DNA of 34,966 nucleotides from Candidatus Caldarchaeales archaeon. Lineage in GTDB: Archaea > Thermoproteota > Nitrososphaeria_A > Caldarchaeales > Wolframiiraptoraceae. Below the pieces are notes generated by a model. That model saw only the letters and a program-made list of their open reading frames with translations, ran no database searches and was not told the origin of the DNA. The DNA is taken from the NCBI GenBank assembly GCA_039630055.1, contig JBCNVN010000014.1, positions 1-34,966 on the forward strand, in the 5' to 3' direction. Every line of letters starts with the position of its first letter. The first letter of the stretch is position 1. Shown in pieces: positions 2,291 to 34,671 of this stretch. The translations under genes were made by a program, and so were the position numbers.

Positions 2291-2324
2291 AGGGGGATGT
2301 GTTTATGTAATTAAAAAATTTGCT

Positions 2325-2340
2325 GAAAAAGTTTATAATA
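2325..2340 (+). promoter_or_regulatory. Archaeal BRE/TATA promoter for the type III-D operon
   Basis: GAAAAAG-TTTATAATA lies about 25 nt upstream of ATG 2362, consistent with a leaderless transcript. Confidence 0.55.
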
Positions 2341-2361
2341 AACTTTCCACATGTTTCCTTT

Positions 2362-9816: not shown

Positions 9817-9817
9817 G

Positions 9818-12003: not shown

Positions 12004-12070
12004 TTTTGTCCCACTAAGTCTTATCTGTTACCATACTCTTTCAAGCGTTTATCTTCTTCTCATAGTTAAA

Positions 12071-12283
12071 ATGTTTCGAGCTGAGATCATTAACTTAACA
12101 GAGATGAAACCACCAGCTTCTTATGACCTACTATCCAGCGAAGAATATAATAGAAGCATGGAGAAGATCTGGAGCATGGTGAAAAGCAGAACTGACTTGA
12201 CTAGCATAAATCATAAGGTTGCATTATATCAGAAAGAGCTGAGGAGGATTTTAAATGTCTATGCCAGAGTGGATGAGCATTAG
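12071..12283 (+). CDS. Small hypothetical protein, possibly a degenerate nucleotide-sensor (SAVED/CARF-like) fragment
   Basis: 70-aa ATG ORF overlapping csx3; only a by-eye resemblance. Confidence 0.3.
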   Translation: MFRAEIINLTEMKPPASYDLLSSEEYNRSMEKIWSMVKSRTDLTSINHKVALYQKELRRILNVYARVDEH

Positions 12284-12554
12284 AGAAGATACTATAATCT
12301 TTAATATCCCGCCTACCCGCTCTATAACCTATAGCGAGTTACCTAATGCTGTAAATGCCGCCTTCGAGTATTTCAGTAAGAACAAGAAAAACATAGTTAA
12401 AATAACAGGTAGAGGACCAATATGGTTATACAGTTCAATAGTTCATGTAGTAGCCCACTTAGCGAGGGCGGTAGCTGTCTATGACGCAATAGTAGGGAAA
12501 TATGTTATCGTAGTAAGCCATGACCCAGAGTATAGTATAGGTAGCGTACTTTAA
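12255..12554 (+). CDS. csx3: Csx3 / Crn3 cA4 ring nuclease
   Basis: ITGRGPIWLY, AH...VAVYD, VVSH match Archaeoglobus fulgidus Csx3 motifs; GAGGAGG ribosome-binding site at 12241-12247. Confidence 0.9.
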   Translation: MSMPEWMSIREDTIIFNIPPTRSITYSELPNAVNAAFEYFSKNKKNIVKITGRGPIWLYSSIVHVVAHLARAVAVYDAIVGKYVIVVSHDPEYSIGSVL

Positions 12555-12587
12555 AACAGAGCTAAAACACTCTTCCCCACATGAAGA

Positions 12588-14024: not shown

Positions 14025-14123
14025 TAGTAGTATTTATTTCTCGCTCTTATTTAGAAATCTACTGAAATAGTGGGTACAGATCTCAGATTATATCCCAGAG
14101 TGTAACGTATATCGTAGAGGAAT

Positions 14124-14933
14124 ATGGATGGTTGGGCTCATCTGGTTTTGGTCGGAGCATATATCGTAAATAATGCTTATAGAAGTAACTTGATAGAGCG
14201 TGATGTTCCTAATTTAGAGGAGAACCTTAAAGAAGAAAGGTTTAGAGATAGCTTTATTGAATTACTTCTAAACTATGTTGAGAGTAATTATAAGGAGGCT
14301 AGTGCTGAGCTGAATACTTGCATAGACTTGATTGTTGAAGGATATGAGAATGGTAAGCAGCAGTGATGTTATCTACTATCTTCTGATATAAAAGTCGGTA
14401 AACTGTGTAGCGATATCTTGTTTAGATTCTTGAAGAAGTTTTCTAGTGAGAGGCTTGATGGTAGGCTTGCTGTACTCGATCCAGTATCCATTCCTCTCTT
14501 AGGAGATCCTAAAAAATTTAATGATGGTTTAGCTAACCTATTTGAGAAGATCGTCGATATGCTATCATACCATAAGAGGCTTGGTGATAATGTCTTTGTT
14601 CATGTAACTAGAGAATTTAAACCAGAGACAGCTATAGCTATTCTAGCAGCCAACATGTCTATGACCGATGCTTCAACATTCTACATACATGAACACTTAA
14701 ACCAGCTCGAAAGGATACCTGCTATGCCTATAGCTTTCAGGAAGTGGAGAAGATTCTCAGAGATGATGAGTCATCTTCTAAACGTTGATAGAGCAAACAA
14801 GGAACAGTACATCAGATTTTATGGAAGAAGAGCTGTATTAGAAGGAATTAGACTTGGATGGATAGAAGAAGAGAGTACATTCTTAAAACTTGCCACATTT
14901 GGTAGATTGTTGTGGAGTAAGCTGAGAAGATAG
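14124..14933 (+). pseudogene. Disrupted APE2256-family CARF protein (Crn1/Sso1393-like ring nuclease)
   Basis: ORFs 14124-14366 and 14418-14933 are one frame split by TGA at 14364-14366. Read through, it shows VG..IVNN, SAELN, LLSSD...G..C, F.DGL.NL, FKPE, YIHE and IP.MP motifs plus a wHTH-like tail. Confidence 0.75.
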
Positions 14934-15164
14934 ATAGGAGGTTGAATTATTCTATATATGTGTTTAAGTCTCCATGAGGTCTGCATGAAACTATTGAGCA
15001 TTAATTATCATTAAAGAATCCCTTATAGAATATGATCTCCAATAATCTTCTTAAGATGTGATCAGAAGATCCAGAAAATATATTAATAGGTAGAACTTGA
15101 AGTGCGGAGAAAGTAGATCAAGATTATAAAATAGGAGTTGTTCACTATCTGTTAGTGTTTAGTA

Positions 15165-16004
15165 TTGTGTGTAGAAGTTATTGGCATTATTGCTACATCA
15201 TCCCTAGATAGCTATCCAAAATTCTCTATAGGCTTCCATATCAGAAGCTTATTTTACAAGATCTTAAAATTTTCTGATCCCGCTCTCGCTTCTAGAATCC
15301 ATGAGTATAGAGGGCTGGCGCCTTTTTCAGCCTCACCATTAATCAGGCTTGAGAAGAGTATTTACTACTTTCGGTTTACCTCTTTTGATAGTAGAATCTC
15401 TAATGCATTGCTAGACTTCTTTAAGAGATTTGATGAAGTTGAGTTGCTCAATTCAAGGTTTTATCTAAATGAAGTTGTTTATAAGAGTCTTGATTTAAAG
15501 AAGCTCTTATCTGAATCTCATCCATACCAGAGATATGAACTAGAGTTTCTTAGTCCAACCTGTTTTAGGAGACCTTGTCCATACATTCCCCTCTATGCTC
15601 TCGGCCCGATTGCCAGTATATTGAGATTCTTTAACAAGCCTAAATCAAGTTATAGATATTATCCATTACCTGATCCTGTATTAATGTTTAGGAATCTTGC
15701 TAGACTTTGGAGAGAGTATGGTGGAGTAACGATACATTCTAAGAGATTTAGTAGATGGCTTGAAGAAGGTGGAGTAGCACTATCAGGGGTTGAAGATGTT
15801 AAGACCCATAGATTAATACATAGAAGGCGTAGAGCATTCATTGTAGGATTCACTGGAAAGATTAGATTAAATCTTCCAAACGATACATTCAATGAGAAAT
15901 ATGCAAGAATAGTCCACGCATTATTAAAGCTGGGTGAAGAAGTACAGGTAGGAGTTAACAGAACAGCAGGATTCGGACTATACAAAATATTGAAAATAAT
16001 TTAA
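15165..16004 (+). CDS. cas6: CRISPR-associated endoribonuclease Cas6
   Basis: IHE...APFSASP, FLSPTCF, PLPDP, VGFTG and C-terminal G-loop VGVNRTAGFG. Confidence 0.93.
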   Translation: MCVEVIGIIATSSLDSYPKFSIGFHIRSLFYKILKFSDPALASRIHEYRGLAPFSASPLIRLEKSIYYFRFTSFDSRISNALLDFFKRFDEVELLNSRFYLNEVVYKSLDLKKLLSESHPYQRYELEFLSPTCFRRPCPYIPLYALGPIASILRFFNKPKSSYRYYPLPDPVLMFRNLARLWREYGGVTIHSKRFSRWLEEGGVALSGVEDVKTHRLIHRRRRAFIVGFTGKIRLNLPNDTFNEKYARIVHALLKLGEEVQVGVNRTAGFGLYKILKII

Positions 16005-19893: not shown

Positions 19894-20235
19894 TCTACCG
19901 ACTTGAGAGATGATATAAATATTTAGAAGAGTCCATTTTCTTTACTTCACGCATGATATCGGATTTCTTAGAGGGTGTAGAGTTAATCTAGAAACGTTTT
20001 TATTTTTCTAAAGGTTTTAAGGCTTGCGGGAAAACTCTTGTAAATCATAAAGATTTGTAGAGAAGTTTCACTAAAACCTTCTAATAGACTTGTCTCCATT
20101 ATGAGACAGAATATTATGTTCTAATAGTTAATCAATATGATAGTATAGAATATTTTTAGAAAACTATCGGATAGACGCTATATACAATTATCAAGTTTGA
20201 TAATTAACCAATGAACTTATTTATGGAGTCTTCAA

Positions 20236-22044
20236 TTATGAATCTTCTGATAATGGTATGGATTTAATGAATTCTGACTGGAAACTAAGCTCGGTTGCTA
20301 ACTCTACGTACTCTATTTGTTTAACTAGTTCTGTTGCCTCATCTCTGATCTTTTTTGAAAGAAGCATCATCTTAGCTCCCATACCTGCAGTGTTTCCGAC
20401 GAGCCTTACCTTATCCAAATCAAATTTTGGGAACATTCCTATCTTCATAGCAGATACAGGGTTGATGAAGAATCCAAATGTACCTGCAATGTATATTCTC
20501 TCAAGTTCCCCCTCATCCATCCTCACCTTCTTCAACAAGGTGTTGATACCTGTTCTAATAGCCGCTTTTGCAAGCTGTATCTCTCTTACATCTTTCTGAG
20601 TGATAACTATATCAACTCCTATCGTTGTCTCATCCCCATAAGCTATAACAAACTCAGGATATCCTTCCTCACCAATTCTCAGCCTTTTTGATCTCTCTTG
20701 ACAGAACTTCCCAGTTTTATCTATTATTCCTACATCATATAGTTCGGCGATTGTATCTATAACAGCCGACCCAGTCAGCCCCATCGGCTTTCCACCACCT
20801 ATCACAGTATAACTAACCTCACAATCATGGGATATCTCGACTCTATCTATTGCGCCTTTTGCAGCTCTCATCCCAAACTTTACATGTGCTCCCTCAAAGG
20901 CAGGTCCTGATGCTGTGGAACATGCTATGAATCTTCCATCAGTTCCGATTACTATCTCAGTATTGGTTCCTATATCTATTAGCATGGTTTTCAAACTTTC
21001 TCTATGGAGTCCCGTAGCAAGCATGTCGGCCACCACATCTGATCCTATGTAACCTGCGATTAATGGTGGTAGGAAGAGCCTTGCTCCAGTATTAACGTTT
21101 AACCCTATATCAGATGCTTTCACGTACATCTGCTCTTTTATGATCGGCGTATAGGGGAAGAAGGCAAGACTTCTAAGGTCTAGCCCTAGCAATGTGTGGT
21201 GCATAACGGTATTTCCTACCGCTACTACTTCGTAGATCTCATCTGGATGAACTCCAGCAAGACTACATGTCTTCTCGATCATAGTGTTTATCCCTTCAAT
21301 CACCTTCTTATTCAGATCTTCTACCCCATTCTTTATGGCATATGTTATCCTGGATACCACATCTTCACCATAAGCAGTCTGCGGGTTTATCTCAGCAGTT
21401 GCTGCCAAGGTCTTTCCATCGATTATGTCAACGAGATAACTTGCCAGCTTCGTTGTGCCGACATCTACCGCAAACCCCAAAACACGATCTTTACAACCTC
21501 TTACATCTAACACCTCTTTATCGTGTAATATTAAGCAAATCTTCTTTTCTTCATCCTCTAGAATCCTTGACAATCTTTTAATAGGCCATGCATCAAAGAC
21601 TAAATCTCTTGTAGGCAGATTATTTACAAGGCTTCTCAAGACAGAGTGGTTGCCCTTCTTCGAAACTAAGACTTCAATCTTTCTAATGAGCGGGTCGTGA
21701 ACCTCTTCAGCCAAATAGCCTTCAACCAATAATACATGCTCCAATGCTCTAGAGTCTGATGGTACATGTACAGTTACAGTTCCTTCACTCGATATCTTAC
21801 ATCTACATGCAAGTCTGAAGCCCTCCGACAACTTTCTCCAACCAAGTATTGATCTCTCCTCCTCAGTCGGATGCGTCAGAAGACTACTTCCATCAATTAT
21901 CTTGACCACGCATCTTCCACACGACGCTTTTCCACCACATGGCCCAAGAATATCTATTCCACCAATCCTAGCTATCTCGAGTAGATAGTCTCCTACATTG
22001 CACTCGACCTCTTTCGAATCTGGGACAAATCTCACAGTTGGCAT
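20236..22044 (-). CDS. ATP-dependent reductive activator of corrinoid proteins (RACo type; N-terminal 2Fe-2S plus ASKHA ATPase)
   Basis: CGGKASCGRC...RLAC ferredoxin motif, DVGTT, NPQ..YGEDVVSRI, DIGTNTE, GPAFEG, QLAKAAI, AGTFG. Start taken at MPTVRF (22044). Confidence 0.9.
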   Translation of the reverse strand: MPTVRFVPDSKEVECNVGDYLLEIARIGGIDILGPCGGKASCGRCVVKIIDGSSLLTHPTEEERSILGWRKLSEGFRLACRCKISSEGTVTVHVPSDSRALEHVLLVEGYLAEEVHDPLIRKIEVLVSKKGNHSVLRSLVNNLPTRDLVFDAWPIKRLSRILEDEEKKICLILHDKEVLDVRGCKDRVLGFAVDVGTTKLASYLVDIIDGKTLAATAEINPQTAYGEDVVSRITYAIKNGVEDLNKKVIEGINTMIEKTCSLAGVHPDEIYEVVAVGNTVMHHTLLGLDLRSLAFFPYTPIIKEQMYVKASDIGLNVNTGARLFLPPLIAGYIGSDVVADMLATGLHRESLKTMLIDIGTNTEIVIGTDGRFIACSTASGPAFEGAHVKFGMRAAKGAIDRVEISHDCEVSYTVIGGGKPMGLTGSAVIDTIAELYDVGIIDKTGKFCQERSKRLRIGEEGYPEFVIAYGDETTIGVDIVITQKDVREIQLAKAAIRTGINTLLKKVRMDEGELERIYIAGTFGFFINPVSAMKIGMFPKFDLDKVRLVGNTAGMGAKMMLLSKKIRDEATELVKQIEYVELATELSFQSEFIKSIPLSEDS

Positions 22045-22131
22045 CGATTTTCCACGACAAGAGATTAGCTTCCTCAACCATCTAAAAAGTTTTGCATAAA
22101 TCTTAAATCTTCTTAAATTATTTTTTAAGAT

Positions 22132-22821
22132 ATGTTGGAAGAAGTATCTGAGTATCTTGAGAAGTTGAAGAGTGCGATACTGAGTGGAGATTCTGACTCT
22201 GCTAGAGAAATAGCGAAGATTCTAAAGGAGAAGAATGTAAACCCTGTTGATGTCGTGAATAATGCGATAAAACCTGCGATGGACGAGATGGGTAAGAAAT
22301 ATGAGAACCTCGAAGTATTTCTCCCCGAGCTCGTATTAGCGGGGGAGGCTGCGCAAGAGGTTCTCGGAGTTCTTCTACCAAGAGAGATGGAGTCATCTTT
22401 TATCAAAGGAAAGGTCGTCATAGGGACGATCTACGGTGATATCCACGATATAGGTAAAAACATAGTCGCAGCAATGCTTCGAGCTAATGGATACAAGGTT
22501 ATCGACCTCGGTTACGATGTACCACCGAGAAACTTTGTCGAGACCGCCAAGAGAGAGGGTGCAAGGATAATTGGGATTTCTTGCTTGTTAACCCCATCCA
22601 TGTTCTATATGAGAGATGTTATAACTAGACTTATCGATGAAGGGATACGAGATAAGTTCTACGTCATCATAGGCGGTGCAGCCGTCTATCCTGGTTGGGC
22701 TAGGGAGATAGGTGCTGATGGCTGGGCGAAGGATGCCGAGAGGGCGGTCCATCTATGTGATACACTACTTGAGAAAGGTCACGAGTTACCTAAGCCCGTG
22801 ATACTTGGAGAATGGAGATAG
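22132..22821 (+). CDS. Methyltransferase cognate corrinoid (B12-binding) protein, MtaC/MtmC family
   Basis: FLPELV cap domain, GDIHDIGKNIV (DxHxxG cobalamin motif), IIGGA, IGADG. Confidence 0.92.
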   Translation: MLEEVSEYLEKLKSAILSGDSDSAREIAKILKEKNVNPVDVVNNAIKPAMDEMGKKYENLEVFLPELVLAGEAAQEVLGVLLPREMESSFIKGKVVIGTIYGDIHDIGKNIVAAMLRANGYKVIDLGYDVPPRNFVETAKREGARIIGISCLLTPSMFYMRDVITRLIDEGIRDKFYVIIGGAAVYPGWAREIGADGWAKDAERAVHLCDTLLEKGHELPKPVILGEWR

Positions 22822-22831
22822 GTGAACGTCC

Positions 22832-24214
22832 TTGGATCTCCTCTTCAATGTTCTAGATAAAACTTTAAGCGGACCCCCTATGGAAAAACGCGATTTTGAG
22901 TTAAAGCTTGTTCCGAGAATAACGAGAGAAGTTTTAAAAGAGCATGGTTTAGAGAGAACATTCGACCCTAACAACCCGATAAACACAGACTTGTCTCTTG
23001 CAAAAGACTTCTACAGAGCTGGCTATGACTTCGCTATTAGAGTTGGAATGTTCTGTCCAGACACTGGGAGGAGAGTTATCTTCACCGAGGAAGAGATAAA
23101 GCAAGCTCTCCGAGATGCGCCGAGAGAAGTTGTTCTCGGTTATGGAAAAGACAGTGTAGTCATAAGGAGTAGGAAGCCTGAGGATGGTATACCGCCAGTC
23201 GCAGAAGGCTCAGCACTAGGCATGGCGGTATCAGAAGAATACTTTATACCGCTCTGCATGAGCATTGCTCAGTACAAGGTAATAGACATAATACTTGCAC
23301 CTACTCTAGACAGGATAAATGGGAGAGAGATACGCGCGAGAACACCATACGAGACGATCATGGGGATGTATGAAGCGAAGTATGTAAAAGAAGCGTTAAG
23401 GAGGGTTGGGAGACCTGGTATGCCACTTCATGGTGTTGAAGGTGCACCAACCGAATACGCTTACATATCGGGTTTCCTGCCAGGAGGCTACGACCCCGAT
23501 AGGACTATTGGGATAGCCTTGATACCAGAACCGATAATACTCTCCTACCAGATAATGCACAGAGTGGTTACTAACCACCTGATAGGCTCACCGCTAGAGG
23601 CAGGCCATATGCTGAATATTGGAGGATACTTTGGGCCTACTGAAGGTGCTGTCGTAGGAGCTGTAGCAGCTCAGATACTCCAGACGGCCTCTATGTTCCC
23701 CACAGTCGTGGAAAGCACGATACTCGACGCTAGATTCTTCTCAAATACTAGTAGAGAAGCTTTGTGGGCGACGAGTACGAGTATGCAGGCGAGGACTCTG
23801 GGTAACCAGGTGATGAATCTCGGTATTACAAGTCAAGTGAGTGGACCATGCACAGACATGCTCCTATACGAGACCACCACGATAACCATCGCCGACTCAG
23901 TCTCAGGGGTCTCTATCGAGATAGGTACTAGACCTGCCGCGTGTAGGTATAAAGACCATGGTAGCGGCTTGGAGAATAAGTTCTTCGCCGAGGTCCTCAA
24001 ATCATCTGCCAAGAACCTAAAGCTCTCGGATGCGAATGAGATTGTAAAAGCGATACTTCCAAAGTATGAAGGTAGGTTGAGGGATCCACCTAAGGGGAAG
24101 AGCTTCGTAGAGTGTACAGATCTCAAGACTCTTCAACCAACGAGAGAGTGGTTGGAGATATATGAGAGAGTCTGGAGGGAGCTGGAGGACCTAGGGCTTC
24201 CAAGGTGGGAGTAA
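22832..24214 (+). CDS. mtmB: Monomethylamine:corrinoid methyltransferase homologue, non-pyrrolysine
   Basis: 460 aa with CPDTGRR..FTEEEI, TPYE, GRPGM, GPCTDM and PPKGKSF.EC.D motifs; no in-frame TAG. GGTGA ribosome-binding site before the TTG start. Confidence 0.85.
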   Translation: MDLLFNVLDKTLSGPPMEKRDFELKLVPRITREVLKEHGLERTFDPNNPINTDLSLAKDFYRAGYDFAIRVGMFCPDTGRRVIFTEEEIKQALRDAPREVVLGYGKDSVVIRSRKPEDGIPPVAEGSALGMAVSEEYFIPLCMSIAQYKVIDIILAPTLDRINGREIRARTPYETIMGMYEAKYVKEALRRVGRPGMPLHGVEGAPTEYAYISGFLPGGYDPDRTIGIALIPEPIILSYQIMHRVVTNHLIGSPLEAGHMLNIGGYFGPTEGAVVGAVAAQILQTASMFPTVVESTILDARFFSNTSREALWATSTSMQARTLGNQVMNLGITSQVSGPCTDMLLYETTTITIADSVSGVSIEIGTRPAACRYKDHGSGLENKFFAEVLKSSAKNLKLSDANEIVKAILPKYEGRLRDPPKGKSFVECTDLKTLQPTREWLEIYERVWRELEDLGLPRWE

Positions 24215-24215
24215 G

Positions 24216-25574
24216 ATGCGCTTCACCGACCTCGCGTACGATGCTCCAGAAGACTTGTTATTTGGTTTTGCTAAGCATCCTCTAGACTATGGCTTCGACC
24301 TATCTGTTGGTAGAGGAAGAGTTGTCCCAGAGGTAAAGTATTTATTGAAACCTGGGTTTGAGAGGGATAAGGAGCTTCTTCTTGAAGAGTATAAGAAGAC
24401 TACGATGGCGATTATGGAGAGGGTCGTTAACCTAGGTTTTAGAGAAGTCCAGCTAGATACCGAATTCGTTGAACCTATGGTTAGAAACGTAGAGTGGGGG
24501 GGCTCGGTGGTGAGAGAGCAGAAAGAGATCCTCCACAAGTACTATCTAGAGCACGGTGTGAAGTCGGCTCTGAGAGCAACCGTCGCCGATATTAGAAGGT
24601 TTGAGAGAGGCTTGAGGAGGGATGACTATGTCCAGATGATTCTAGAATCTCTTGAGCGCTCTGATGATGAGGGTGCAGACCTCTTATCAATAGAGTCGAG
24701 AGGTGGACAAGAAGTCTTCTCGTATTCGATCATGAGAAACGACTTATCCGGAATACTCTTCTCGTTAGCTATCTTAGCATCTAGAGATGTTAGATTCTTG
24801 TGGAGAGAGATAGTAAGTTTATCGAGAGACGCTATACCCGCTGGGGATACTGCATGCGCTCTAGCAAATAGTGCAATGGTCCTCGCGGACGGCCTCTTAA
24901 ATAGAAGGATACCCCACGTCTTATCCACTGTAATAAGAGCGATGTCAGCTGTCAGGACGCTTGCATGTTATGAAGAAGGTGCGAGGGGCCCTGGAAAAGA
25001 CTGTGCATACGAGAACGTTATCATCAAGGCGATAACCGGGTATCCGGTGAGTATGGAGGGGAAGACATCGGCTCCAGCGCACTCCAGCCTATTGGGGAAT
25101 ATCTCTGCAGCTGTATGTGACCTATGGTCAAATGAATCGATAACTGTAGACGATTTCTTTAGTGGAAAGAGCGTGGCCGCTATGTTGGAGATACTTTGCT
25201 ACGACGTCTCAGCCATGAATACGTCTATAACATTGAATCTGAATAGAGAACTCCAGAGAGTTCTCATAGAGTCTGATAAGTATAGAGATCCTCAAGCACT
25301 CATACTTTCTCCATACAATGCTCACAGAATTGCAAGAGCCATAGTATCTGAGAAGACTGATTATTACCGAGCGGTTGTAGCTGCGAATGAGGCAGTAAAG
25401 ATAATCGAAGAGAACATGGATAAGCTTAATTGTCCAGAAGCTGAGATAAGGTATCTCTCATTAATTAAGAAGTTCTTTGAGAATGTCCCTGAAGAAGAGA
25501 GATTTATCGAGGAGGCTGTTAAGAAGTACACTGAAAAAGTTCAGAGCTTTAAACTATCGAACTACGAGCTTTAA
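24216..25574 (+). CDS. mtaB: Methanol:corrinoid methyltransferase
   Basis: FTDLAY...FG.AK.P, LSIES.GG.EV, GDTAC..AN.AM, GPGKDCAYEN (Glu/Cys/Cys Zn ligands retained), EGKTSA.AHS, DLWSNES, DKYRDPQ. Confidence 0.9.
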   Translation: MRFTDLAYDAPEDLLFGFAKHPLDYGFDLSVGRGRVVPEVKYLLKPGFERDKELLLEEYKKTTMAIMERVVNLGFREVQLDTEFVEPMVRNVEWGGSVVREQKEILHKYYLEHGVKSALRATVADIRRFERGLRRDDYVQMILESLERSDDEGADLLSIESRGGQEVFSYSIMRNDLSGILFSLAILASRDVRFLWREIVSLSRDAIPAGDTACALANSAMVLADGLLNRRIPHVLSTVIRAMSAVRTLACYEEGARGPGKDCAYENVIIKAITGYPVSMEGKTSAPAHSSLLGNISAAVCDLWSNESITVDDFFSGKSVAAMLEILCYDVSAMNTSITLNLNRELQRVLIESDKYRDPQALILSPYNAHRIARAIVSEKTDYYRAVVAANEAVKIIEENMDKLNCPEAEIRYLSLIKKFFENVPEEERFIEEAVKKYTEKVQSFKLSNYEL

Positions 25575-25579
25575 CATCT

Positions 25580-26518
25580 CTATCTCATCTTCTTAAATGG
25601 CTTCGCTAGAGCTGCAGGCCCCTTCACTCTTCTTCCCGCTATAATCAAGACCACTATCGTGAGAAGATATGGTAGCATCAGAGAGAATTGATGTGGTAAG
25701 GATATTACTCCAGATGCTTGTATTCTAAGCTGGGCAGCATCTATAAAGCTGAATAGAAAACTTGCAGGTAATAATAGTAGAGGATTCCATCGAGCTAATA
25801 TGATGAGCGCGATGGCTATGTAGCCTCTCCCCTGCGTCATATTATCTAAAAACATGTTGTAGTAGGCTATAGAGAGCGTTGAGCCCGCTATCCCTACAAT
25901 GAAGCCTTCAAATACGAGGATGTAGGAGCGGATGAGATTTACATTTATCCCTAAGTAGTCTGCAACCTGAGGATCCTCTCCTATAGCTCTCGTCTTAAGT
26001 CCAAGTCTAGTCTTGAATAGGAGCCACCATACTAGTGGAACTAGTAGAAACGCTATATACGTATGTGGGATGTGATAGAAGACTGCCTCCCCTACGAGTG
26101 GGATCTCTGAGAGTACTGGTATCTCTATCGGTCTTATAGTCTCTTTAATATGAGGTGGCACTGGACTGACATACCATCCAAAACTAGCTCTGTATAGATA
26201 TGATGTCATACCGATGGTGAGCATATTCATTGCGAGACCAATGACCATCTGGTCTAGGGATAGGAAGACTGTTAAGAGAGCGAAGAGTAAGCACATAATG
26301 ATTCCCGCGGCACCTGCTGTGATAGTTGCGAACAGCAGGTCTCCCGTATAGTATGCGACCATGAAGGCGGTAAACGCACCCATGAGCATCGTCGCCTCAA
26401 TGCTTAGATTCAACAATCCACTCTTCTCAACTAATAGCTCTGCCGCCCCAGCGAGTAGTAGAGGAGTGAGGAGTATTATGCTAGAGTAGACTATCCCCGA
26501 TACCAGTTCACTTATCAT
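25580..26518 (-). CDS. Nucleoside/sugar (CUT2-type) ABC transporter permease
   Basis: EKSGLLNLSIE, RAIGEDP, GRGYIAIA, PAALAKPF; hydrophobic throughout. Confidence 0.9.
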   Translation of the reverse strand: MISELVSGIVYSSIILLTPLLLAGAAELLVEKSGLLNLSIEATMLMGAFTAFMVAYYTGDLLFATITAGAAGIIMCLLFALLTVFLSLDQMVIGLAMNMLTIGMTSYLYRASFGWYVSPVPPHIKETIRPIEIPVLSEIPLVGEAVFYHIPHTYIAFLLVPLVWWLLFKTRLGLKTRAIGEDPQVADYLGINVNLIRSYILVFEGFIVGIAGSTLSIAYYNMFLDNMTQGRGYIAIALIILARWNPLLLLPASFLFSFIDAAQLRIQASGVISLPHQFSLMLPYLLTIVVLIIAGRRVKGPAALAKPFKKMR

Positions 26519-27558
26519 TGCCTTAACCTCTCTAACAGCTTGGTCGCGAACTTCTCCTCCAAATAGTATCCAACCATTATGAAGATTATCATGATGGCTT
26601 GAATTATCCCCGCCATACCTACAGGTACATTCGCCATCCTATGCATCGTCATACTTCCATTTATTATGCCTCCTAGGAATATAGATGTCGCAGCGATCAG
26701 TACTGGGTTTAGATATCCTAGGAGTGCGACGGCTATTGCAGTGTAACCATAGGGTGAGATTGATGGCGATATCTCTAACCTCATCTTATGCTGTATCCCG
26801 AGTACCTCGATACCTCCTGCAACGCCTGCAAGAAAACCGCTAATCAACATGGATTGTATAATCAATCTTGTAACGTTTATCCCAGCGTATTCCGCGGTCT
26901 TTCTACCAGAGCCAAGTATCTCCAACTTCATACTGAAAGCTGTCCTCCTCAGAATAAAGTATATGATGGGGACTGTGAAGAATGCAAGTAGGATCCCCGC
27001 ATGGAACCTTGTACCTGGAAACAGTATCGGGATCCAGATCTGTTCTGGAAGGGTCGATGTCTCAGGAAATGATGAGACGGGATCTCTAAAAGGATTGTGG
27101 AGCAAGTAGCTAACAGTATAGATAGCGACATAGTTGAGCATCAACGTTGTTATAATCTCGTTTATACCGTAATGTGCTCTCAGGATCGCTGGAGGAAGAG
27201 CCCATGCTGCACCACCAACTCCAGCTGTTGCAAACAGTAAGAAGTATGCGAGCGGTTGTGGAAGATTTTGAGTGTAGAGTCCGAGGATCGCGGTTATAGT
27301 TGCACCTATGTAAAATTGTCCTTCTGCACCTATATTCCATATATGTGCTGTAAATGAGATCGCTAATCCTAAACCTATTAAGAGTAAGGGTGTTGCACGT
27401 ACAAATGTCTCTATGAGAGATGTTGCTGAGAATGCTCCGTAGAAGAGCCAGTAGTATGCTACTAGGGGGTTTACACCGGCAAGTAACAGTATTACTGACC
27501 CTACTAGGAAAGCTATACCTATAGTCATAGTTCCTAAGAAAGCCCGTATAATTATCAA
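26515..27558 (-). CDS. Nucleoside/sugar (CUT2-type) ABC transporter permease
   Basis: WNIGAEGQ, NEIITTLMLNY, AEYAGI, GYTAIAVALLG. Confidence 0.9.
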   Translation of the reverse strand: MIIIRAFLGTMTIGIAFLVGSVILLLAGVNPLVAYYWLFYGAFSATSLIETFVRATPLLLIGLGLAISFTAHIWNIGAEGQFYIGATITAILGLYTQNLPQPLAYFLLFATAGVGGAAWALPPAILRAHYGINEIITTLMLNYVAIYTVSYLLHNPFRDPVSSFPETSTLPEQIWIPILFPGTRFHAGILLAFFTVPIIYFILRRTAFSMKLEILGSGRKTAEYAGINVTRLIIQSMLISGFLAGVAGGIEVLGIQHKMRLEISPSISPYGYTAIAVALLGYLNPVLIAATSIFLGGIINGSMTMHRMANVPVGMAGIIQAIMIIFIMVGYYLEEKFATKLLERLRQ

Positions 27559-27566
27559 TGATCTCT

Positions 27567-29063
27567 CTACCGTGAAGATAAGCCGACCTCCGCGGCTAAC
27601 ATGTACATACCAATCCTGTTCGGGTCTACCTCACTCGCATTAAATATCCTCACTATTCTTCCATCTCTCATGACAGCAATCCTATCACATACCTCTAGTA
27701 CTTCATCTATGTCGTAAGATACGAGTAGTATGCCTACACCCATCGATGCAAGCTTAAGTAAGCTCCTCCTAACGTGGTAGGCTGATCTCACGTCTAAGCC
27801 AGCAGTAGGCTGCTCTGCTATCAAGAGCTCCGAACCCCTCATCAACTCTCTTCCTACTATAAGCTTCTGGATATTTCCACCTGAAAGATACTTTACCGGC
27901 AAGTTCGTATTCGGCGTTCTCACATCCATGAAATGTATTATTTTATTCGCGGTCTCTTCTATCTTTGAGAATCTCAGGATACCGTATTTCCCACTAAATT
28001 CCTCACGCTCAAAATCTCTCAGAACTGCATTCTTCATCACGCTTAGCGATGGGGCGACACCGATCTCCAAACGCTCTTCAGGGATATAGCTTGGGCTAGA
28101 GGAGCACCTATTGTTGATAAATATTATTTGACCTGATAACTGTTTTCTCAAACCAGTTATCGACTCGATAAGCTCTCTCTGCCCACTCCCTTCTACACCT
28201 ATCAAACCGAATATCTCTCCCTTGCGAACTTGGAACGATACTCCATTCACCTTTACCACACCTTGATCGTTTTTAACGACTAGGTCTCTCACAATGAGTA
28301 GTGGAGTCTCATACTCTTCACGTGGTTGTCTTAAAACTTCTGGCAAAAAGTGCTCACCAAGCATCATCTCAAGCAATACTCTCTCATCTTTTATCTCATC
28401 CCTCTTCAATGTAGATATCGTCTTCCCCTTTCTCATAACCGTAACCCTATCACAAACCCTCAATGCCTCCCTAATCTTATGAGTAATCAAGACAATGCCA
28501 TAACCTTCAGATGCAAGTTTCCTGAGCATATCCAGGAAGTTTTCAGCATCAGGTCCGCAGATTGAAGACGTAGGCTCATCGAATATCAGAATCCTCGCCT
28601 TCAAAAGCATCATCCTCATTATCTCGACTTTCTGCTTCTCTCCAACTGATAGAACGTGAACCGGCGACCTCAAGTCTACATTTAACCTAAGAAACCTAGA
28701 TATTCTCTCTATGTCTTTGAACAGTTTTTCTTTCTTTACGTCTTGACCTGTAAGACCGAGCATTAGGTTTTCCAAGACGGACATGCTCGGTATTAGTGTA
28801 AAGTGCTGATGTAGCATTCCTATACCATGCTTCATAGCGTGAGCTGGAGACTTGAACTCGACCCTCATTCCATCTACGTAGATGGATCCTGAAGTCGGTT
28901 TAAGACATCCACTCAGTATCTTCATAAGCGTAGTCTTTCCAGCCCCGTTCTCGCCTAAGAGTGCGTGGACCTCACCCTTCTCAACCTCAAAGTATGCGTT
29001 ATCTACAGCTACTGTTCCACCTGGATATATCTTTACTATGTTTTCAAGTCTGATTAACGACAT
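27567..29063 (-). CDS. CUT2-type ABC transporter ATP-binding protein (tandem ABC domains)
   Basis: GENGAGKT, LSVGEKQKVEI, IFDEPT; second domain LSGGNIQK, QPTAGLD. Confidence 0.93.
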   Translation of the reverse strand: MSLIRLENIVKIYPGGTVAVDNAYFEVEKGEVHALLGENGAGKTTLMKILSGCLKPTSGSIYVDGMRVEFKSPAHAMKHGIGMLHQHFTLIPSMSVLENLMLGLTGQDVKKEKLFKDIERISRFLRLNVDLRSPVHVLSVGEKQKVEIMRMMLLKARILIFDEPTSSICGPDAENFLDMLRKLASEGYGIVLITHKIREALRVCDRVTVMRKGKTISTLKRDEIKDERVLLEMMLGEHFLPEVLRQPREEYETPLLIVRDLVVKNDQGVVKVNGVSFQVRKGEIFGLIGVEGSGQRELIESITGLRKQLSGQIIFINNRCSSSPSYIPEERLEIGVAPSLSVMKNAVLRDFEREEFSGKYGILRFSKIEETANKIIHFMDVRTPNTNLPVKYLSGGNIQKLIVGRELMRGSELLIAEQPTAGLDVRSAYHVRRSLLKLASMGVGILLVSYDIDEVLEVCDRIAVMRDGRIVRIFNASEVDPNRIGMYMLAAEVGLSSR

Positions 29064-29070
29064 CTAGACT

Positions 29071-29091
29071 CCCCCGAAAAAATATGGGGGG
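29071..29091 (-). terminator. Intra-operon hairpin/T-tract between the binding-protein and ATPase genes
   Basis: Minus strand CCCCCC-ATATTTTTTC-GGGGG; the 3' arm overlaps the GGGGGAG ribosome-binding site of the ATPase gene. Confidence 0.45.
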
Positions 29092-29100
29092 TTAAAGAAT

Positions 29101-30177
29101 TCACTTCCATCTCTCAGGATTCCAATCCTCGATTACTGGTACCTTAAACCTTCCTTCTACTATATCTTTCTCTGTTTTTTCTACGAGTTCCAAGACTTCT
29201 TTTGGAACCTCTTTCTTGAGCTTCTCGTTCCAGATTAGTTTAGCCCATCCTTCCTTCATCCCCCAATCGTATATTCCACCCTCCCATCTTCCTTTCTGCT
29301 TCATCTCTATCAATTTAGCAACGAAAGTCTTGAGATCCCATACGACGCTAGCGAGAACTACTTCTGGTGCAAGAGTAGATTGGTCTACTATATTACCAAA
29401 ACAGTATACTTTCTTCCCCCTTACTAAAGCTTCTTTCGCTGCTTCAAATGGACCGTATCTTTCAGCATATATGAAGTCGGCTCCCATCTCTATTAGAGTC
29501 TTTGCAGCATCTTTACCCTTAATAGGGTCGAACCAACTCTCGATATAGATAGCTTTAACCTCAACCTTAGGATTGGCGGATTTAGCTCCAGCCGCAAAAG
29601 CGTTTACGAGTCTATTGACATCTGGGACAGCGTATGCAGCTACCACTCCTACAATATTGGTCTTAGTCATCTTCCCCGCTATTATTCCTGCAAGATATGC
29701 AGCATCTTGTATCCAGTAATCGTATAGAACTATGTTGGCAGGGTACTTGATGTCTGTTGGACCTGAGCCTTGTGCAAAAGCTACATTCGGGAACTCTTTC
29801 GCTAATTTTATCGTAGTCTCATAGAAGCCCCAGCTATGAGGCATTATTATATCGTATCCTGCGGCTAAGTATTCTCTAATAACTCTCTCAACATCAGCTG
29901 TATCGACTTTTTCAGAATAAACATACTCGAAATCATATCTTCCCTTAGCCCATGTCAACGCTTCGTGAAGAACTGTATTCCAAGGCTCCTCGATAGGTGT
30001 GGTATAGATAACCGCAACCTTAAGCTTTTTCATAGGTGTTGTCGACTGAGGCCCAGGGGAGAGAGTTACAAAATATCCAGCTACGACTGCAACAACAATT
30101 ATCACCGAGATAACTAATGCTAAAACCATTTTCGAGATTCCACACTTACCTTGAGATTCAATTCTTACCATATTCAT
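29101..30177 (-). CDS. BMP/PnrA-family ABC transporter substrate-binding protein
   Basis: N-terminal membrane anchor, EEPWN, AYLAG..AG.MTKTN.VG, SWFDP, GADFI, GNIVDQ. Confidence 0.9.
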   Translation of the reverse strand: MNMVRIESQGKCGISKMVLALVISVIIVVAVVAGYFVTLSPGPQSTTPMKKLKVAVIYTTPIEEPWNTVLHEALTWAKGRYDFEYVYSEKVDTADVERVIREYLAAGYDIIMPHSWGFYETTIKLAKEFPNVAFAQGSGPTDIKYPANIVLYDYWIQDAAYLAGIIAGKMTKTNIVGVVAAYAVPDVNRLVNAFAAGAKSANPKVEVKAIYIESWFDPIKGKDAAKTLIEMGADFIYAERYGPFEAAKEALVRGKKVYCFGNIVDQSTLAPEVVLASVVWDLKTFVAKLIEMKQKGRWEGGIYDWGMKEGWAKLIWNEKLKKEVPKEVLELVEKTEKDIVEGRFKVPVIEDWNPERWK

Positions 30178-30269
30178 CTAATCTACACTCTATTATATAA
30201 GATTGGTTTTACACGTTTATATAAAAAGAACACGATCTCGTAAAAACCGCATCCCCATATCGAAATCCT

Positions 30270-30379
30270 GCTATCAAATATGCCTAACTATAATCACCAA
30301 ATTCTACACTCTTTTTAGCATGCATTAGACCAGCTTTAGCACTGTCAAGCCAGTTTATGACCTCGTCTCTCATAGACAT
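30270..30379 (-). pseudogene. Truncated HEPN-domain (toxin-antitoxin type) gene remnant
   Basis: MRDEVINWLDSAKAGLMHAKKSVEFGDYS*AYLIA matches the N-terminus of archaeal standalone HEPN proteins (W...A..DL..A......GDY.WA.F.A), with TAG at the Trp position (30284-30286). Confidence 0.5.
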
Positions 30380-31097
30380 AGAACATCCATCCCTACGCAT
30401 AATGACATCAGCTCAGTTAAAATCTTACCATCACTGACGTGAGATAAGAACATATCGGGAAGGAAAACATGTTGTTTAAGTGTATTAGTATCAAAAGGCT
30501 ATCGAGCCGATATCTCTGATGGTAAAATCTTGAAGATAACAGATATTGGAGATTCGCCAAAAAATACCATTCTTTACCTAGTACAATATTTTCAGATAAC
30601 ATATCGGAGACCTCTAGCAAACCTTCTTTATACACGTCCAAGATACTATTGTGGCCTCAACCATAACATAATCGCTTGGTAGAACCCATCTTTCTATAGT
30701 TTAGATAATTGTATCACATATTAATTCATTTAATCCATGACCTCCTTCAACAACTTGTAAGATTGCAACCTGCTTATGATGAAGAATCTCATAAGACTCT
30801 TGGGTGATCTATAATATCACTCGTGATCAAATTATAGTTGACTGGAGATGGGGTTAGTCGGGTAGACTATGGCCAGAGCCGAGTCCAAAGTGTGGTCTAA
30901 GAGTAATACCATTGAAGAAGAGATATGAGGATATGCTCCATCTTTAAGTTCAGATGGTTCGATCCCTGAAGATTCACGGCCAAGCCATGTATACCACCAC
31001 ATCAATATCGCTAATAGTTAAGGATGTCATGCTGGAGAGATGGGCAGAATAAAGCATAATTAGGATTAGAACAATTTTAGGTTTGGAGTGAGCCGAG

Positions 31098-32240
31098 ATG
31101 ACTTATATCGCTCATCTTGCAGATTTGCATTTAGGTTACAGACAATATGGATTGATAGAGAGGGAGGAGGATATCTATGAGACCTTTGATGAGGCAGTTG
31201 ATAAAATAATTGAAGAACATGCGAGGATAGTTATTATCGCAGGAGATTTATTTAATTCGGCTAGACCTCCTATCCGATCCCTCTATCATGTAAAATCAAA
31301 TCTTGAGAAGCTTAAGTCTAGAGGTATCAACGTTTTCTGTATTCTAGGAGACCATGATATACCGAGAAGAGTTGGCGAATACAGTCCATTAACTCTTTTC
31401 AGAGGAGACCTGCTTCACCACATAGATGGTAAGACTGTAGAGATTGAAATAGATGGAATACGTATCAAGATCACTGGGGTAGATAGAGCGCCATCCACAG
31501 CATCGGATAAAGTTCGTAAGATTATTGAGAAGCTTTCAAAGGATATACAGACAAAAGCTGGAACCGAGAGAAATATCTTGGTTACACACCTTCCTTTACA
31601 TGGCATTTCAGGTGAACTATGTATAGATGATCTGCCTGAAAACTATGATTACTATGCATTGGGACATGAACATGTGAGAAGAGTTTTCCGTAAGGGGTTG
31701 GGTCTGGCCTCATACCCTGGGTCCATAGATATTCTATCAAGAGATGAGATTATAGGGTGGAAGTTAGAAGGAAAAGGTTTTTATCTAGTAGACCTTTCAG
31801 GTTCTGAACCTATAGTTGAGAAGGTGGACTTAAAGTCTATAAGACCACAAGAGATCTTTGAGATAAGCCTTGGAGAGCCTATAGATAAGCTGGTCGATTG
31901 GATTACTCATCAGAGTAAGAAGCCGATCCTTCATCTTCTAATAAAAGATCGAGAATTCGATTTAAGAAGAATAAATGAGATTGCTGAAAAATTACGAGGA
32001 ATAGGCTGCCTCGATGTCAGATATAGGAGAAAAATCTTTAGAGAGGACGATCAATTTAAAGCACTTCCACACATCGATCATTCACGATTCAATATTATAG
32101 ATCTTATAAAGACGAGTATTATGGAGATCGGTTTATCCGAAGAAGAGGCTGAATTAGCAATAAATATCTATAAAGAGTTCCGCACTGGAGGAGGAGATGC
32201 TCTCAAAGAGTTATTACTTAGAAGATCTCCAGAGGGATAA
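31098..32240 (+). CDS. mre11: Mre11/SbcD nuclease
   Basis: Phosphoesterase motifs ADLHLG, AGDLF, GDHD, VTH, ALGHEH and YPGS; directly upstream of rad50. Confidence 0.92.
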   Translation: MTYIAHLADLHLGYRQYGLIEREEDIYETFDEAVDKIIEEHARIVIIAGDLFNSARPPIRSLYHVKSNLEKLKSRGINVFCILGDHDIPRRVGEYSPLTLFRGDLLHHIDGKTVEIEIDGIRIKITGVDRAPSTASDKVRKIIEKLSKDIQTKAGTERNILVTHLPLHGISGELCIDDLPENYDYYALGHEHVRRVFRKGLGLASYPGSIDILSRDEIIGWKLEGKGFYLVDLSGSEPIVEKVDLKSIRPQEIFEISLGEPIDKLVDWITHQSKKPILHLLIKDREFDLRRINEIAEKLRGIGCLDVRYRRKIFREDDQFKALPHIDHSRFNIIDLIKTSIMEIGLSEEEAELAINIYKEFRTGGGDALKELLLRRSPEG

Positions 32241-32244
32241 GTAG

Positions 32245-34671
32245 ATGATTATTAGAGAAGTTTATCTAAATAATTTTATCTCATACGAAGAGGCGGTTGT
32301 GAAATTCCCTATAGGGGTGACAGTTATAGTTGGAGAGAACGGTGCAGGGAAGACAGCCATACTAGATGCGATAACTTATGCACTCTTCAAAGAACATAGT
32401 AGAGGTAGAGATGAAAACCTGATAAGAAGACGTATGAACAACTCAAAGATCAAGCTTAGATTCTCTGTTAGAGGGAAAAACTTTGAGGTCGAATGGAATC
32501 TCTCAAGAGGCAGGTCTCCTATAGGAAACCTAAAAGATTTAGATGAGGGATATTCTTTGGTTAGGCCTGGGTCGGGAGAGAGAACCATCATCCCGGAGAT
32601 AGCCAAGTTAACAGGATTAGATAAAGAAGTCTTCATCAATGCAATCTATGTTAAGCAAGGAGAGATCGCTAAGTTTCTAGATGCTAAACCCTCTGAAAGA
32701 AAGAAGATAATTGGACAACTATTGGGAATAGAGGAGTTAGAGAAGATATGGGAAGCTATGAGAGACCCTCTCAAGGATCTGGAAGCCAAGGTAGAAAGCT
32801 ATGCTTTAGAAGTTGAGAGGATAGAAGTTGAGAGGAGAAGGATTCAAGAAGAGTTGGAGACCCTATCAAAGAAACAAGATCAACTTAGAGAGATAGAGTC
32901 TGAGAAGGCGAAGCTTAGAGAAGAGATAGAAGATTTAAGAAGAAAGATCGATAAGCTTGAAGAAAAGAGGAAGAGATGGAGTGAATTAGAAAGCCTTATC
33001 ACAAGTCTAGAGAAGAGAGAGCTTGAAAATAGGTCGCAGAAGGAGCGTTTAGATGAAAAAATCCGTATTCTAGAAGAGGCTTCTAGTAGATTAAGAGAAT
33101 ATGAACCTCTAAATACTGAAAAGATGGTAGAAGAAGGAAAGCTCCACTCGCTCTACATTAAGAGGGATGAGTTAGAGGGACTGCTACAGATTAAGAGGTT
33201 GAAGAGAGAAGAGGTAGAGAGAGTTAAAGGAGAGAAGCAATTTTTAGAAGCTCAAGTCAATCAATCGCTAGATAAATTCAAGAAGGTTACTGGTATCGAG
33301 GTAAATGTGGTAGACTTCAAAGAAGTCTATGAGCAGGTCTACAAGAATGTTAAAGATGGAATCTCCAAGATAAACGTAGAGATGCAAGAGAAGATGAGAG
33401 GTAAGCAGAAGTATTATAAACTAGGCATCTTCTCAACCATCTTAGGCACAACTTCATCGATTATCTTGCTAGCAGTCTCTGGAATAAGCATGACATCACT
33501 CATCATCTCATCTCTCATCGTAGTGCTTGCAGTTCTCTCGCTGATTACATCCTTCAAGAAGCAGAAGATACTAGAAGACAAGATAAACAGTCTACTGGAA
33601 GAGAGGCAAAGACTGGAAATGCAGAAATCACAGTTAGAAGATATTAGAGTAAATGAGGTTCATGAAAAAATCAGTAGATACAACAAGATTGAAGAAAAGA
33701 TCATAGAGCTGGAGGAAGATGTTAAAGATTTGGATATACTTGAATTAGAATACCAAAATCTAAGAAAGGATATTGAGAAGATTCAAAATAGAGTAAAAGA
33801 GCTACAACAGTATTCAGATGGATATATGAAGGCTTTAGGGGTTCTTGAAAGAGAGGGTTTGAAGAACATCGAAGAACTTGAAGAGAGGATCAAAGAGCTT
33901 AAACAAGAGAAAGCTAATATCGAGGAGGAATTGGAGCAGATCTCGAGTGAACTTGCTCACTTAAGAGAAGAAGAGTGTAGGATAGCATATAATGATGAAG
34001 AGTATAGATCAGCGAAAGAACGATACATCCTACTCCAAGAGGAAATGATGGATATTGAGAAGAAGATAGCTGAAATAGAGGCAGATATCAAATACTTATC
34101 TAGAGAGATTGAAGAGTTGAAAGCCGACTTGGAAAGATTGGAGCATTCTAGAGAAGCATACATAAAACTGAGACCCTACGTTGATTCTTTGAATAGGATC
34201 CGTGAAATATTTTACAAAGATGGTATCCTCCAGAAGACGGTTAGGAGAAGTGCCTCAACCCTCATAGAAGAGTATGCTAGACTATTCCTTCAAGAATTTA
34301 ATCTACCATTCTCCGATATAAGAATAGATGAAGACTTTAACATCTTCTTGGATGGCAGAGATGGAGAGCAAACACTTGAAACCTTGAGTGGAGGAGAGAA
34401 GATAGCCATAGCATTGATACTTAGGTTGAGTATAGCCGCATCTCTCGCAGGAGAAGCCTTCGAACTTATAATCATGGATGAGCCGACTATTCATCTAGAC
34501 TCAGAGAGGAGGAGAGAGTTGATAAACATGTTCAAGAAATTTAGAGGAGGGAAACGTATAATCCCTCAAGTAATACTCGTATCACATGACAGAGAATTAG
34601 AAGAAGCTGCAGACGAGGTATTCGAGGTTGTGAGGTCTGAAGGTATCTCAAAGATTAAATCATACATCTAA
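32245..34671 (+). CDS. rad50: Rad50/SbcC SMC-family ATPase, hook-less, with a central hydrophobic hairpin
   Basis: Walker A GENGAGKT, Q-loop YVKQGEI, long coiled coils, LSGGE, Walker B IMDEPT, SHD. No CXXC motif. Confidence 0.9.
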   Translation: MIIREVYLNNFISYEEAVVKFPIGVTVIVGENGAGKTAILDAITYALFKEHSRGRDENLIRRRMNNSKIKLRFSVRGKNFEVEWNLSRGRSPIGNLKDLDEGYSLVRPGSGERTIIPEIAKLTGLDKEVFINAIYVKQGEIAKFLDAKPSERKKIIGQLLGIEELEKIWEAMRDPLKDLEAKVESYALEVERIEVERRRIQEELETLSKKQDQLREIESEKAKLREEIEDLRRKIDKLEEKRKRWSELESLITSLEKRELENRSQKERLDEKIRILEEASSRLREYEPLNTEKMVEEGKLHSLYIKRDELEGLLQIKRLKREEVERVKGEKQFLEAQVNQSLDKFKKVTGIEVNVVDFKEVYEQVYKNVKDGISKINVEMQEKMRGKQKYYKLGIFSTILGTTSSIILLAVSGISMTSLIISSLIVVLAVLSLITSFKKQKILEDKINSLLEERQRLEMQKSQLEDIRVNEVHEKISRYNKIEEKIIELEEDVKDLDILELEYQNLRKDIEKIQNRVKELQQYSDGYMKALGVLEREGLKNIEELEERIKELKQEKANIEEELEQISSELAHLREEECRIAYNDEEYRSAKERYILLQEEMMDIEKKIAEIEADIKYLSREIEELKADLERLEHSREAYIKLRPYVDSLNRIREIFYKDGILQKTVRRSASTLIEEYARLFLQEFNLPFSDIRIDEDFNIFLDGRDGEQTLETLSGGEKIAIALILRLSIAASLAGEAFELIIMDEPTIHLDSERRRELINMFKKFRGGKRIIPQVILVSHDRELEEAADEVFEVVRSEGISKIKSYI

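Follow-up and report, generated by a model that had tools for sequence, protein, structure and literature searches.

A zinc hook counts among the defining marks of Rad50, and its mechanical role is debated between the joining of the arms within one complex and the bridging of DNA ends between complexes. The available portion of a Mre11/Rad50 review describes the CXXC hook as the Rad50 apex and mentions no alternative to it (PMC7752040). According to a study of SbcE (YhaN) of Bacillus subtilis, this protein has no CxxC motif and a hydrophobic central domain, insoluble if expressed alone, pairs with the Mre11-like SbcF (YhaO), and acts in double-strand-break repair and transformation (PMC2811018). 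In the literature that we searched, including searches for YhaN/YhaO and membrane, such a hydrophobic central domain was described only in the 2009 SbcE paper, and no archaeal Rad50 was reported to have a membrane hairpin. Here we examine the entire 34,966-base contig JBCNVN010000014.1 (C6; hereafter the window) of a Candidatus Caldarchaeales archaeon (assembly GCA_039630055.1, here G000; 1.54 Mb, completeness 92%), which carries at its right end an mre11-rad50 gene pair whose Rad50 has a long hydrophobic segment at the site of the hook. The best explanation of the whole, which we hold with rather more confidence than doubt on the sequences compared below, is an Mre11-Rad50 complex with a membrane-inserted hairpin in place of the zinc hook.

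A Rad50 with a hydrophobic apex

The pair consists of two genes lying 4 nt apart, from the stop codon of mre11 to the start codon of rad50:

31098-32240, plus strand: mre11, an open reading frame (ORF) of 380 aa encoding the nuclease partner, with matches to Mre11_Sulfo (221 bits), Metallophos (50.5 bits) and PDB 3auz
32245-34671, plus strand: rad50, an ORF of 808 aa without hook and with a hydrophobic apex, with Pfam/NCBIfam and PDB matches

The 808-aa protein is shown to be a true archaeal Rad50 by its matches to archaeal Rad50 equivalogs and to solved heads, by its invariant motifs, and by the mre11 gene directly upstream. It exceeded the cut-offs of Pfam SMC_N, AAA_23 and SbcC_Walker_B, and its best NCBIfam matches were archaeal Rad50 equivalogs, all of them under their cut-offs (Rad50_Sulf, 294 of 1000 bits; PRK01156, 278 of 847; PRK03918, 255 of 700). 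The best solved relatives were archaeal Rad50 heads (E 1e-66), which we take to be those of Methanocaldococcus and Pyrococcus. Walker A, Q138 (Q-loop), S715-G-G-E718 (signature), D745-E746 (Walker B) and H781 (H-loop) were invariant in an alignment of 10 sequences of the clade. The AlphaFold2 (AF2) model, built from the clade alignment, had a mean predicted local distance difference test (pLDDT) score of 83.4 and predicted continuous helices over residues 163-656 that fold back at a loop at 412-417. The parts of the protein, all on the plus strand, are as follows:

32245-32730, plus strand: N-terminal half of the ABC-ATPase head, residues 1-162, with Walker A (G30-T37) and the Q-loop (Q138), placed by invariant columns, AF2 and PDB matches
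32731-33420, plus strand: ascending coiled-coil arm, residues 163-392 (AF2 helices 163-349 and 355-411), ending in KQKYYK with a nearly invariant Tyr390
33421-33477, plus strand: first hydrophobic apex helix, residues 393-411, predicted by hydropathy and AF2
33478-33495, plus strand: hairpin turn, residues 412-417 (SGISMT), an AF2 loop that aligns with the CPLC hook of sister Rad50s
33496-33555, plus strand: second hydrophobic apex helix, residues 418-437, predicted, holding the most hydrophobic 19-mer of the protein
33556-34212, plus strand: descending coiled-coil arm, residues 438-656 (AF2 helices 418-465 through 585-656), starting with KKQK
34213-34668, plus strand: C-terminal half of the head, residues 657-808, with the signature SGGE (715-718), Walker B (D745-E746) and H781

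The partner protein matched NCBIfam Mre11_Sulfo under its cut-off (221 vs. 500 bits), and its best solved match was the archaeal Mre11 3auz (E 3.9e-47). Its motif III reads GDHD where solved archaeal Mre11 has GNHE; the same GDHD is found in the Mre11 partners of hook-type sister Rad50s and is therefore unrelated to the apex.

The initial annotation of this stretch had described a Rad50 paired with Mre11 that has all ATPase motifs, a single cysteine, no CxxC motif, and, about halfway along the coiled coil, an uncharged 45-aa stretch flanked by basic residues, and had placed this segment at 33400-33570. These points hold: motif columns and a sequence scan confirmed the motifs, the sole cysteine (C578) and the absence of any CxxC, the 380-aa Mre11 lies 4 nt upstream, and the longest run free of Asp, Glu, Lys, Arg and His spans 45 residues (393-437; nt 33421-33555, within that interval), the next longest being 10 residues. 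The stretch has a mean hydropathy of 2.0 and is preceded by KQKYYK (net +4) and followed by KKQK (net +2). The Pfam domain PF04423 (Rad50_zn_hook) was absent from the precomputed domains of this Rad50 and of its 10 closest relatives and was present in the next ones.

Membrane propensity was estimated with two simple scales, one of hydropathy and one of insertion energy. Both extremes of the protein fell on residue 419, within the stretch and at the second apex helix: the highest Kyte-Doolittle mean over 19 residues (2.65) and the lowest simple insertion-energy sum (-2.41). The AF2 model predicted a helix over 355-411, a loop over 412-417 and a helix over 418-465, that is, a helical hairpin at the coiled-coil midpoint. 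A dimer prediction for two copies of residues 345-485 with the clade alignment scored 0.01, was run without controls and carries no weight either way. Small-xxx-small (glycine-zipper-like) motifs, considered as evidence of helix packing, were dropped, as the apex holds 11 of them vs. 7.0 expected from shuffles and is not enriched. Look-alikes of residues 330-500 in the ESM Atlas consisted of unnamed clusters and sub-threshold structural rows only.

Conservation, rarity and origin of the apex

Searching 5.8 billion proteins at E <= 1e-20 yielded 86 sequences, among which a hydrophobic apex was present in 11 (query included), a central CxxC in 74, and neither in one. The ten closest relatives (36-50% identity) all lacked Rad50_zn_hook and all carried a hydrophobic apex at the same place; a segment missing from close homologues would have suggested an artefact, and it was present in every one of them. 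Across 13 apex segments (11 proteins and two genomic copies) the uncharged run measured about 35-46 residues and lay at a relative position of 0.46-0.52, with a net positive charge on both flanks in 13/13; in one of the 11 proteins (P0006) the stretch is broken by a single Glu. The helical hydrophobic moment was 0.2-0.9 in 22/23 candidate apex helices and 1.21 in the remaining one, and mean hydropathy reached 2.3. In the clade alignment the apex varied freely in sequence while keeping its composition and length, the only nearly invariant positions being Tyr390, just before the stretch, and Gly401.

These properties bear on whether the apex lies in a membrane or in the cytoplasm. Two hairpins could instead pack as a cytoplasmic hydrophobic four-helix bundle that joins the Rad50 arms, a soluble and zinc-independent form of dimerisation. 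The apex sits exactly at the site where the hook dimerises canonical Rad50, the antiparallel coiled coil simply runs on through it in the AF2 model, and the Pro-rich second halves of some members would make poor transmembrane (TM) helices, all of which would suit such a bundle. However, 35-46 residues with at most one charge and a low hydrophobic moment would leave it with a greasy outer surface, the net positive flanks (13/13) are the usual mark of the cytoplasmic ends of membrane helices, and a sequence that is free to vary while composition and length are kept is what membrane anchors display. We therefore regard the soluble bundle as unlikely and a membrane location of the apex as likely. 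The proposal in the initial annotation that two TM helices anchor the tip of the arm is upheld as far as a conserved, positively flanked two-helix hydrophobic apex goes, and this apex is best read as a membrane hairpin; the insertion itself we infer from sequence.

A trivial origin of the segment, as an assembly chimera or as a decaying gene whose hook was disrupted by a hydrophobic insertion, with no function in either case, is very improbable. The pair does stand at a contig end, and a relative (G033, locus L042) has both genes in fragments. However, both frames are intact here with all catalytic motifs present, and the length, position and flanks of the apex are conserved across more than 20 contigs from several sources. 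In two public hot-spring runs, moreover, contigs extended over the entire stretch and differed from it by substitutions but by no indels, and one contig, which came from another sample of the same study, ran through 32575-33644, apex included, without gaps. No RNA data set was listed for the stretch. The middle 40% of 77 hook-bearing Rad50 loci from named genomes reached a 19-residue hydropathy of at most 0.99 and an uncharged run of at most 17.

The apex is scarce. We compared a clade profile with 1.84 billion representatives at 50% identity and inspected the best 150 of about 65,800 Rad50/SbcC-like matches, which comprised six of the hairpin type (4 full-length, 2 fragments), 143 with CxxC and one N-terminal fragment. 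The four full-length hairpin clusters scored above 1000 bits (down to 1022), and the next cluster scored 690 bits. Among the best 80 loci of named genomes, surveyed with one genome per prokaryotic species, the apex was intact in two and present in a broken gene in one, the other 77 carrying CxxC; both intact copies came from a single metagenome-assembled genome, Candidatus Caldarchaeum sp. (G038). Metagenome contigs added 11 further loci with a visible apex, some from the same population. The hydrophobic apex is thus neither an artefact nor a matter of chance, but a rare and conserved feature.

To place the protein, we computed a tree of 61 rows on 342 columns of the head domain, with the coiled coil and apex excluded and no YhaN sequence among the rows. 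Eleven of the 12 apex proteins formed one clade (SH-like approximate likelihood ratio test, SH-aLRT, 99), sister to the hook-bearing Rad50s of the same order, and the joint clade of 29 rows (SH-aLRT 99) lay inside the other archaeal Rad50s. In the alignment, the hairpin turn falls on the CPLC of the sister proteins with nearly no change in length. As the apex clade is nested in hook-bearing archaeal Rad50s, we take the zinc hook to have been replaced by the hairpin within a bona fide archaeal Rad50 lineage (the Caldarchaeum group), a replacement probably convergent with bacterial SbcE/YhaN. The possibility raised at the outset, that the protein belongs to a YhaN-type clade, is not borne out by its position among archaeal hook-bearing Rad50s, on a tree without YhaN rows and with a sub-cut-off match to AAA_27.

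The twelfth apex protein, P0012, branched at the base of the hook-bearing sister group (SH-aLRT 96). Its nearest full-length relatives are hook-bearing (38-41% identity, vs. 35-36% to the hairpin clade), and its apex has no sequence likeness to the others. Constraining all 12 to group together was not rejected (approximately unbiased test, p-AU 0.674); the tree found under this constraint was 9.7 log-likelihood units better than that of the free search. A single origin of the 12 apex proteins is accordingly compatible with the data, and the replacement may also have taken place twice.

The same order also contains Rad50-like proteins of 713-795 aa that lack both the CxxC motif and the hydrophobic apex (L019-L023, L025 and L026, from genomes G039, G012, G018, G010, G014, G023 and G030). 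On the head tree they group with the short Rad50-like proteins of Nitrosopumilus and Nitrososphaera.

Operon context and proposed working of the complex

In both Candidatus Caldarchaeum loci (G038) the gene order is nurA-herA-mre11-rad50, with NurA and HerA confirmed by Pfam. Upstream sequence was available at 10 of the 11 metagenome apex loci; herA-mre11 lay directly upstream of rad50 in 10/10 and nurA was visible in 8/10, the contigs of the other two beginning inside herA. No fifth gene was conserved around nurA-herA-mre11-rad50 in these relatives, the partner proteins contained no membrane-like segment (highest 19-residue Kyte-Doolittle mean, 1.67), and no other Rad50 match was found in the G038 genome. 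Within this clade, the nurA-herA-mre11-rad50 operon for end resection has the hairpin protein as its housekeeping Rad50.

The two G038 loci (L039 and L040), both arranged as nurA-herA-mre11-rad50 with a hairpin Rad50, have NurA proteins that are 74% and HerA proteins that are 88% identical. The first reading frame of the shorter contig shows only partial similarity to the gene that precedes nurA on the longer contig, and the loci may represent two strains binned together rather than true paralogues.

The setting in the genome under study is different. The suggestion that it might hold a second, hook-bearing rad50 found no support, as no other Rad50 or Mre11 was found in the 92%-complete assembly. 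Neither this Rad50 nor this Mre11 was found in the seven other genomes of the genus that we searched; these carry another pair, in which a 437-aa Mre11-like metallophosphoesterase accompanies a Rad50-like ATPase of 661-664 aa whose hook reads CPTC, and this pair in turn was not found in the genome under study. The flanks of that genus-typical pair in the closest congener (G005; C19, L275 6966-10559) match contig C7 of the present genome at 77-80% identity, and between those flanks (22399-23824, L285) C7 has a gene for a 437-aa major facilitator superfamily transporter instead of the pair. The mre11-rad50 block thus has the appearance of an accessory segment that functionally displaces the genus's own hook-bearing pair.

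These observations raise the question of what the pair acts on. It might mainly handle DNA that crosses the envelope, in uptake or exchange or in defence against viral or plasmid ends, rather than serve chromosomal repair; the initial annotation had put defence or DNA uptake forward beside membrane-linked repair. In keeping with such a role, the pair stands here without nurA-herA, at a contig end, and is missing from all seven congeners; strains part from one another in the read contigs at about 30253 and 34669; the contig also carries a type III CRISPR-Cas locus, 16-30 kb away; the PADLOC models mad3 and LmuB match the ATPase; and the bacterial analogue SbcE/YhaN takes part in transformation and collects at the cell poles during competence (PMC2811018). 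Within its clade, however, the gene supplies the Rad50 of the canonical nurA-herA-mre11-rad50 operon, and no other Rad50 was found in this genome or in G038. No effector or defence partner is conserved nearby, the Mre11 matches no PADLOC family, and the PADLOC matches of the ATPase reflect generic head similarity (135 bits, vs. 294 for Rad50). A search of the IMG/VR viral contigs, finally, returned nothing above 30% identity to this Rad50. We consider a main role in handling envelope-crossing DNA improbable; defence and uptake have little backing, and the operon context in the relatives favours membrane-tethered break repair over both.

How might such a complex work? In our proposal it would be an archaeal Mre11-Rad50 DNA-end-processing complex whose zinc hook is replaced by a helical hydrophobic hairpin, made of two helices of about 19-20 residues each and a turn of about 6 residues, with basic residues at both cytoplasmic sides. 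The hairpin would insert into the cytoplasmic membrane with both ends inside, so that the two arms of about 225 residues point into the cytoplasm and hold the ATPase-nuclease head about 30 nm from the membrane, by simple arithmetic from about 0.15 nm per residue. The two apices of an M2R2 complex would be kept in one two-dimensional membrane, which, perhaps together with lateral contacts between hairpins, would join the arms without zinc and close the ring around DNA as the hook does. Bound DNA ends would thereby be tethered to the cell envelope, and the function in the clade, judged from operon context, would be homologous-recombination repair. Membrane insertion, topology and the purpose of the anchoring are all things that we infer. 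The fullest form of the proposal, that the hairpin replaced the hook, possibly twice, that the complex is the cell's only Mre11-Rad50, in a HerA-NurA operon, and that the membrane closes the ring with resection at the inner face of the envelope, is tentative, and we hold it with somewhat more doubt than belief.

Several observations weigh against a membrane-anchored housekeeping complex. The AF2 model reaches a pLDDT of only 56-73 at the apex. With 3-5 Pro and insertion sums of +5 to +7, the second apex half of the Caldarchaeum-type members would be a poor TM helix, and instead of spanning the membrane it may be re-entrant or interfacial. Held about 30 nm from the membrane, the complex could work on peripheral DNA only, an awkward limit for a sole housekeeping Rad50. 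The hairpin system is also dispensable in another Candidatus Caldarchaeum genome, G033, where the pair is fragmented (L042 6862-10411), with mre11 in 2 pieces and rad50 in 4; nurA and herA are missing there between the upstream conserved gene and mre11, and a second, different Mre11/Rad50-like pair lies on another contig. The broken pair is either a decaying copy or the product of a poorly polished assembly. In the genome under study itself, the cognate nurA-herA was not found: two HerA/NurA pairs are present on contig C1, with HerA only about 22% identical to the operon type, and the local function may differ from that of the clade.

If the proposal of a membrane-inserted hairpin is true, the membrane would be the hinge that closes the Rad50 ring, and double-strand breaks would be resected on the inner face of the envelope. 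The hook and hairpin sister lineages would constitute a natural swap experiment on hook function, and matched pairs of the two would be useful for swaps and for structural work on how the apex constrains the coiled coils; in practice, all carriers are uncultured hot-spring archaea.

One further feature of the window lies directly upstream of mre11:

30178-31097, no strand: gene-poor stretch of 920 nt between a Bmp-type ABC-transporter binding-protein gene and mre11, with small ORFs only

This gap held no convincing gene, tRNA or Rfam match, its repeats were at chance level, and tblastn with the operon-type HerA detected no HerA remnant upstream of mre11. Within it, 30458-30604 resembles DNA of contig C22 (73% identical) and 30640-30788 that of C33 (79%) in the same genome, which may reflect a small dispersed repeat. 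Variant read contigs diverge at 30253 (run X2) and 34669 (run X1), and the 30-letter consensus strings at these breaks had no match, at up to 3 mismatches, in the window or in five genomes of the genus.

Farther upstream are a Bmp-type ABC transporter operon, a methyltransferase/corrinoid cluster and the type III CRISPR-Cas locus. About 10 kb to the left of mre11 (20209-30213) is 92% identical in DNA sequence to the congener G005, the match stopping at window position 30213, which is the end of the G005 contig; in a different syntenic region, identity between the two genomes amounts to only 77-80%. The 92% identity hints at recent exchange or unusually strong conservation. The methyltransferase cluster (20236-25574) encodes a RACo-type corrinoid activase, a B12-binding corrinoid protein, an MtmB-like protein (460 aa, a full-length match without in-frame stop) and the methanol-cobalamin methyltransferase MtaB (530 bits). 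At the CRISPR-Cas locus (2320-16004; 16-30 kb from the mre11-rad50 pair) six genes belong to the RAMP family, and further genes encode a Cas10 of 916 aa that includes an HD domain, a Csx1 (CARF+HEPN; minus strand), a member of the Cas_APE2256 family and Cas6.

Comparison with known systems

Among described systems, three families of SMC-like defence ATPases, Lamassu LmuB, MADS mad3 and DndD/PbeC, share a Rad50-like head and coiled coils with the protein described here, and in PADLOC mad3 matched at 135 bits and LmuB at 104 bits. In contrast to these systems, the locus has no cognate partners (the LmuA effector and LmuC), the matches are weaker than those to Rad50, and the operon of the relatives is one of DNA repair.

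Canonical archaeal Rad50 is much closer. Common to both are the ABC-ATPase head motifs, an antiparallel coiled coil of about 225 residues, an mre11 gene immediately upstream, the nurA-herA operon found in the relatives, and the total length (795-805 aa, vs. 804-841 aa in the hook-bearing sisters), and on the head tree the hairpin type is nested among canonical proteins. The difference lies at the apex, where canonical Rad50 has the hook (CxxC, PF04423) and these proteins have a hydrophobic segment of 35-46 residues with basic flanks, predicted to form a hairpin at the hook site. The protein also scores far under the NCBIfam equivalog cut-offs (294 vs. 1000).

SbcE/YhaN offers the nearest parallel at the apex itself, as it too combines a hydrophobic central domain instead of CxxC with a Rad50/SbcC-like ATPase and an Mre11-like partner nuclease. 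The Pfam family AAA_27 (PF13514) matched our Rad50 at 21.0 bits (cut-off 22) over profile positions 1-60 of 206 only, which is the P-loop part, and at 24.6 bits over positions 1-61 only in a six-frame search that also matched 14/14 control genomes, archaea with canonical Rad50 included; PF13514 was therefore rejected as a non-specific marker of YhaN. Unlike SbcE/YhaN, the protein has archaeal hook-bearing Rad50s as its closest kin, on a tree without YhaN sequences, and an archaeal-type Mre11, and the operon partners in its relatives are NurA and HerA rather than YhaM. The likeness to SbcE/YhaN would therefore be convergent and not a matter of family membership. An independent archaeal arrival at an SbcE/YhaN-like solution would indicate that a membrane-anchored apex is a workable and selectable alternative to zinc.

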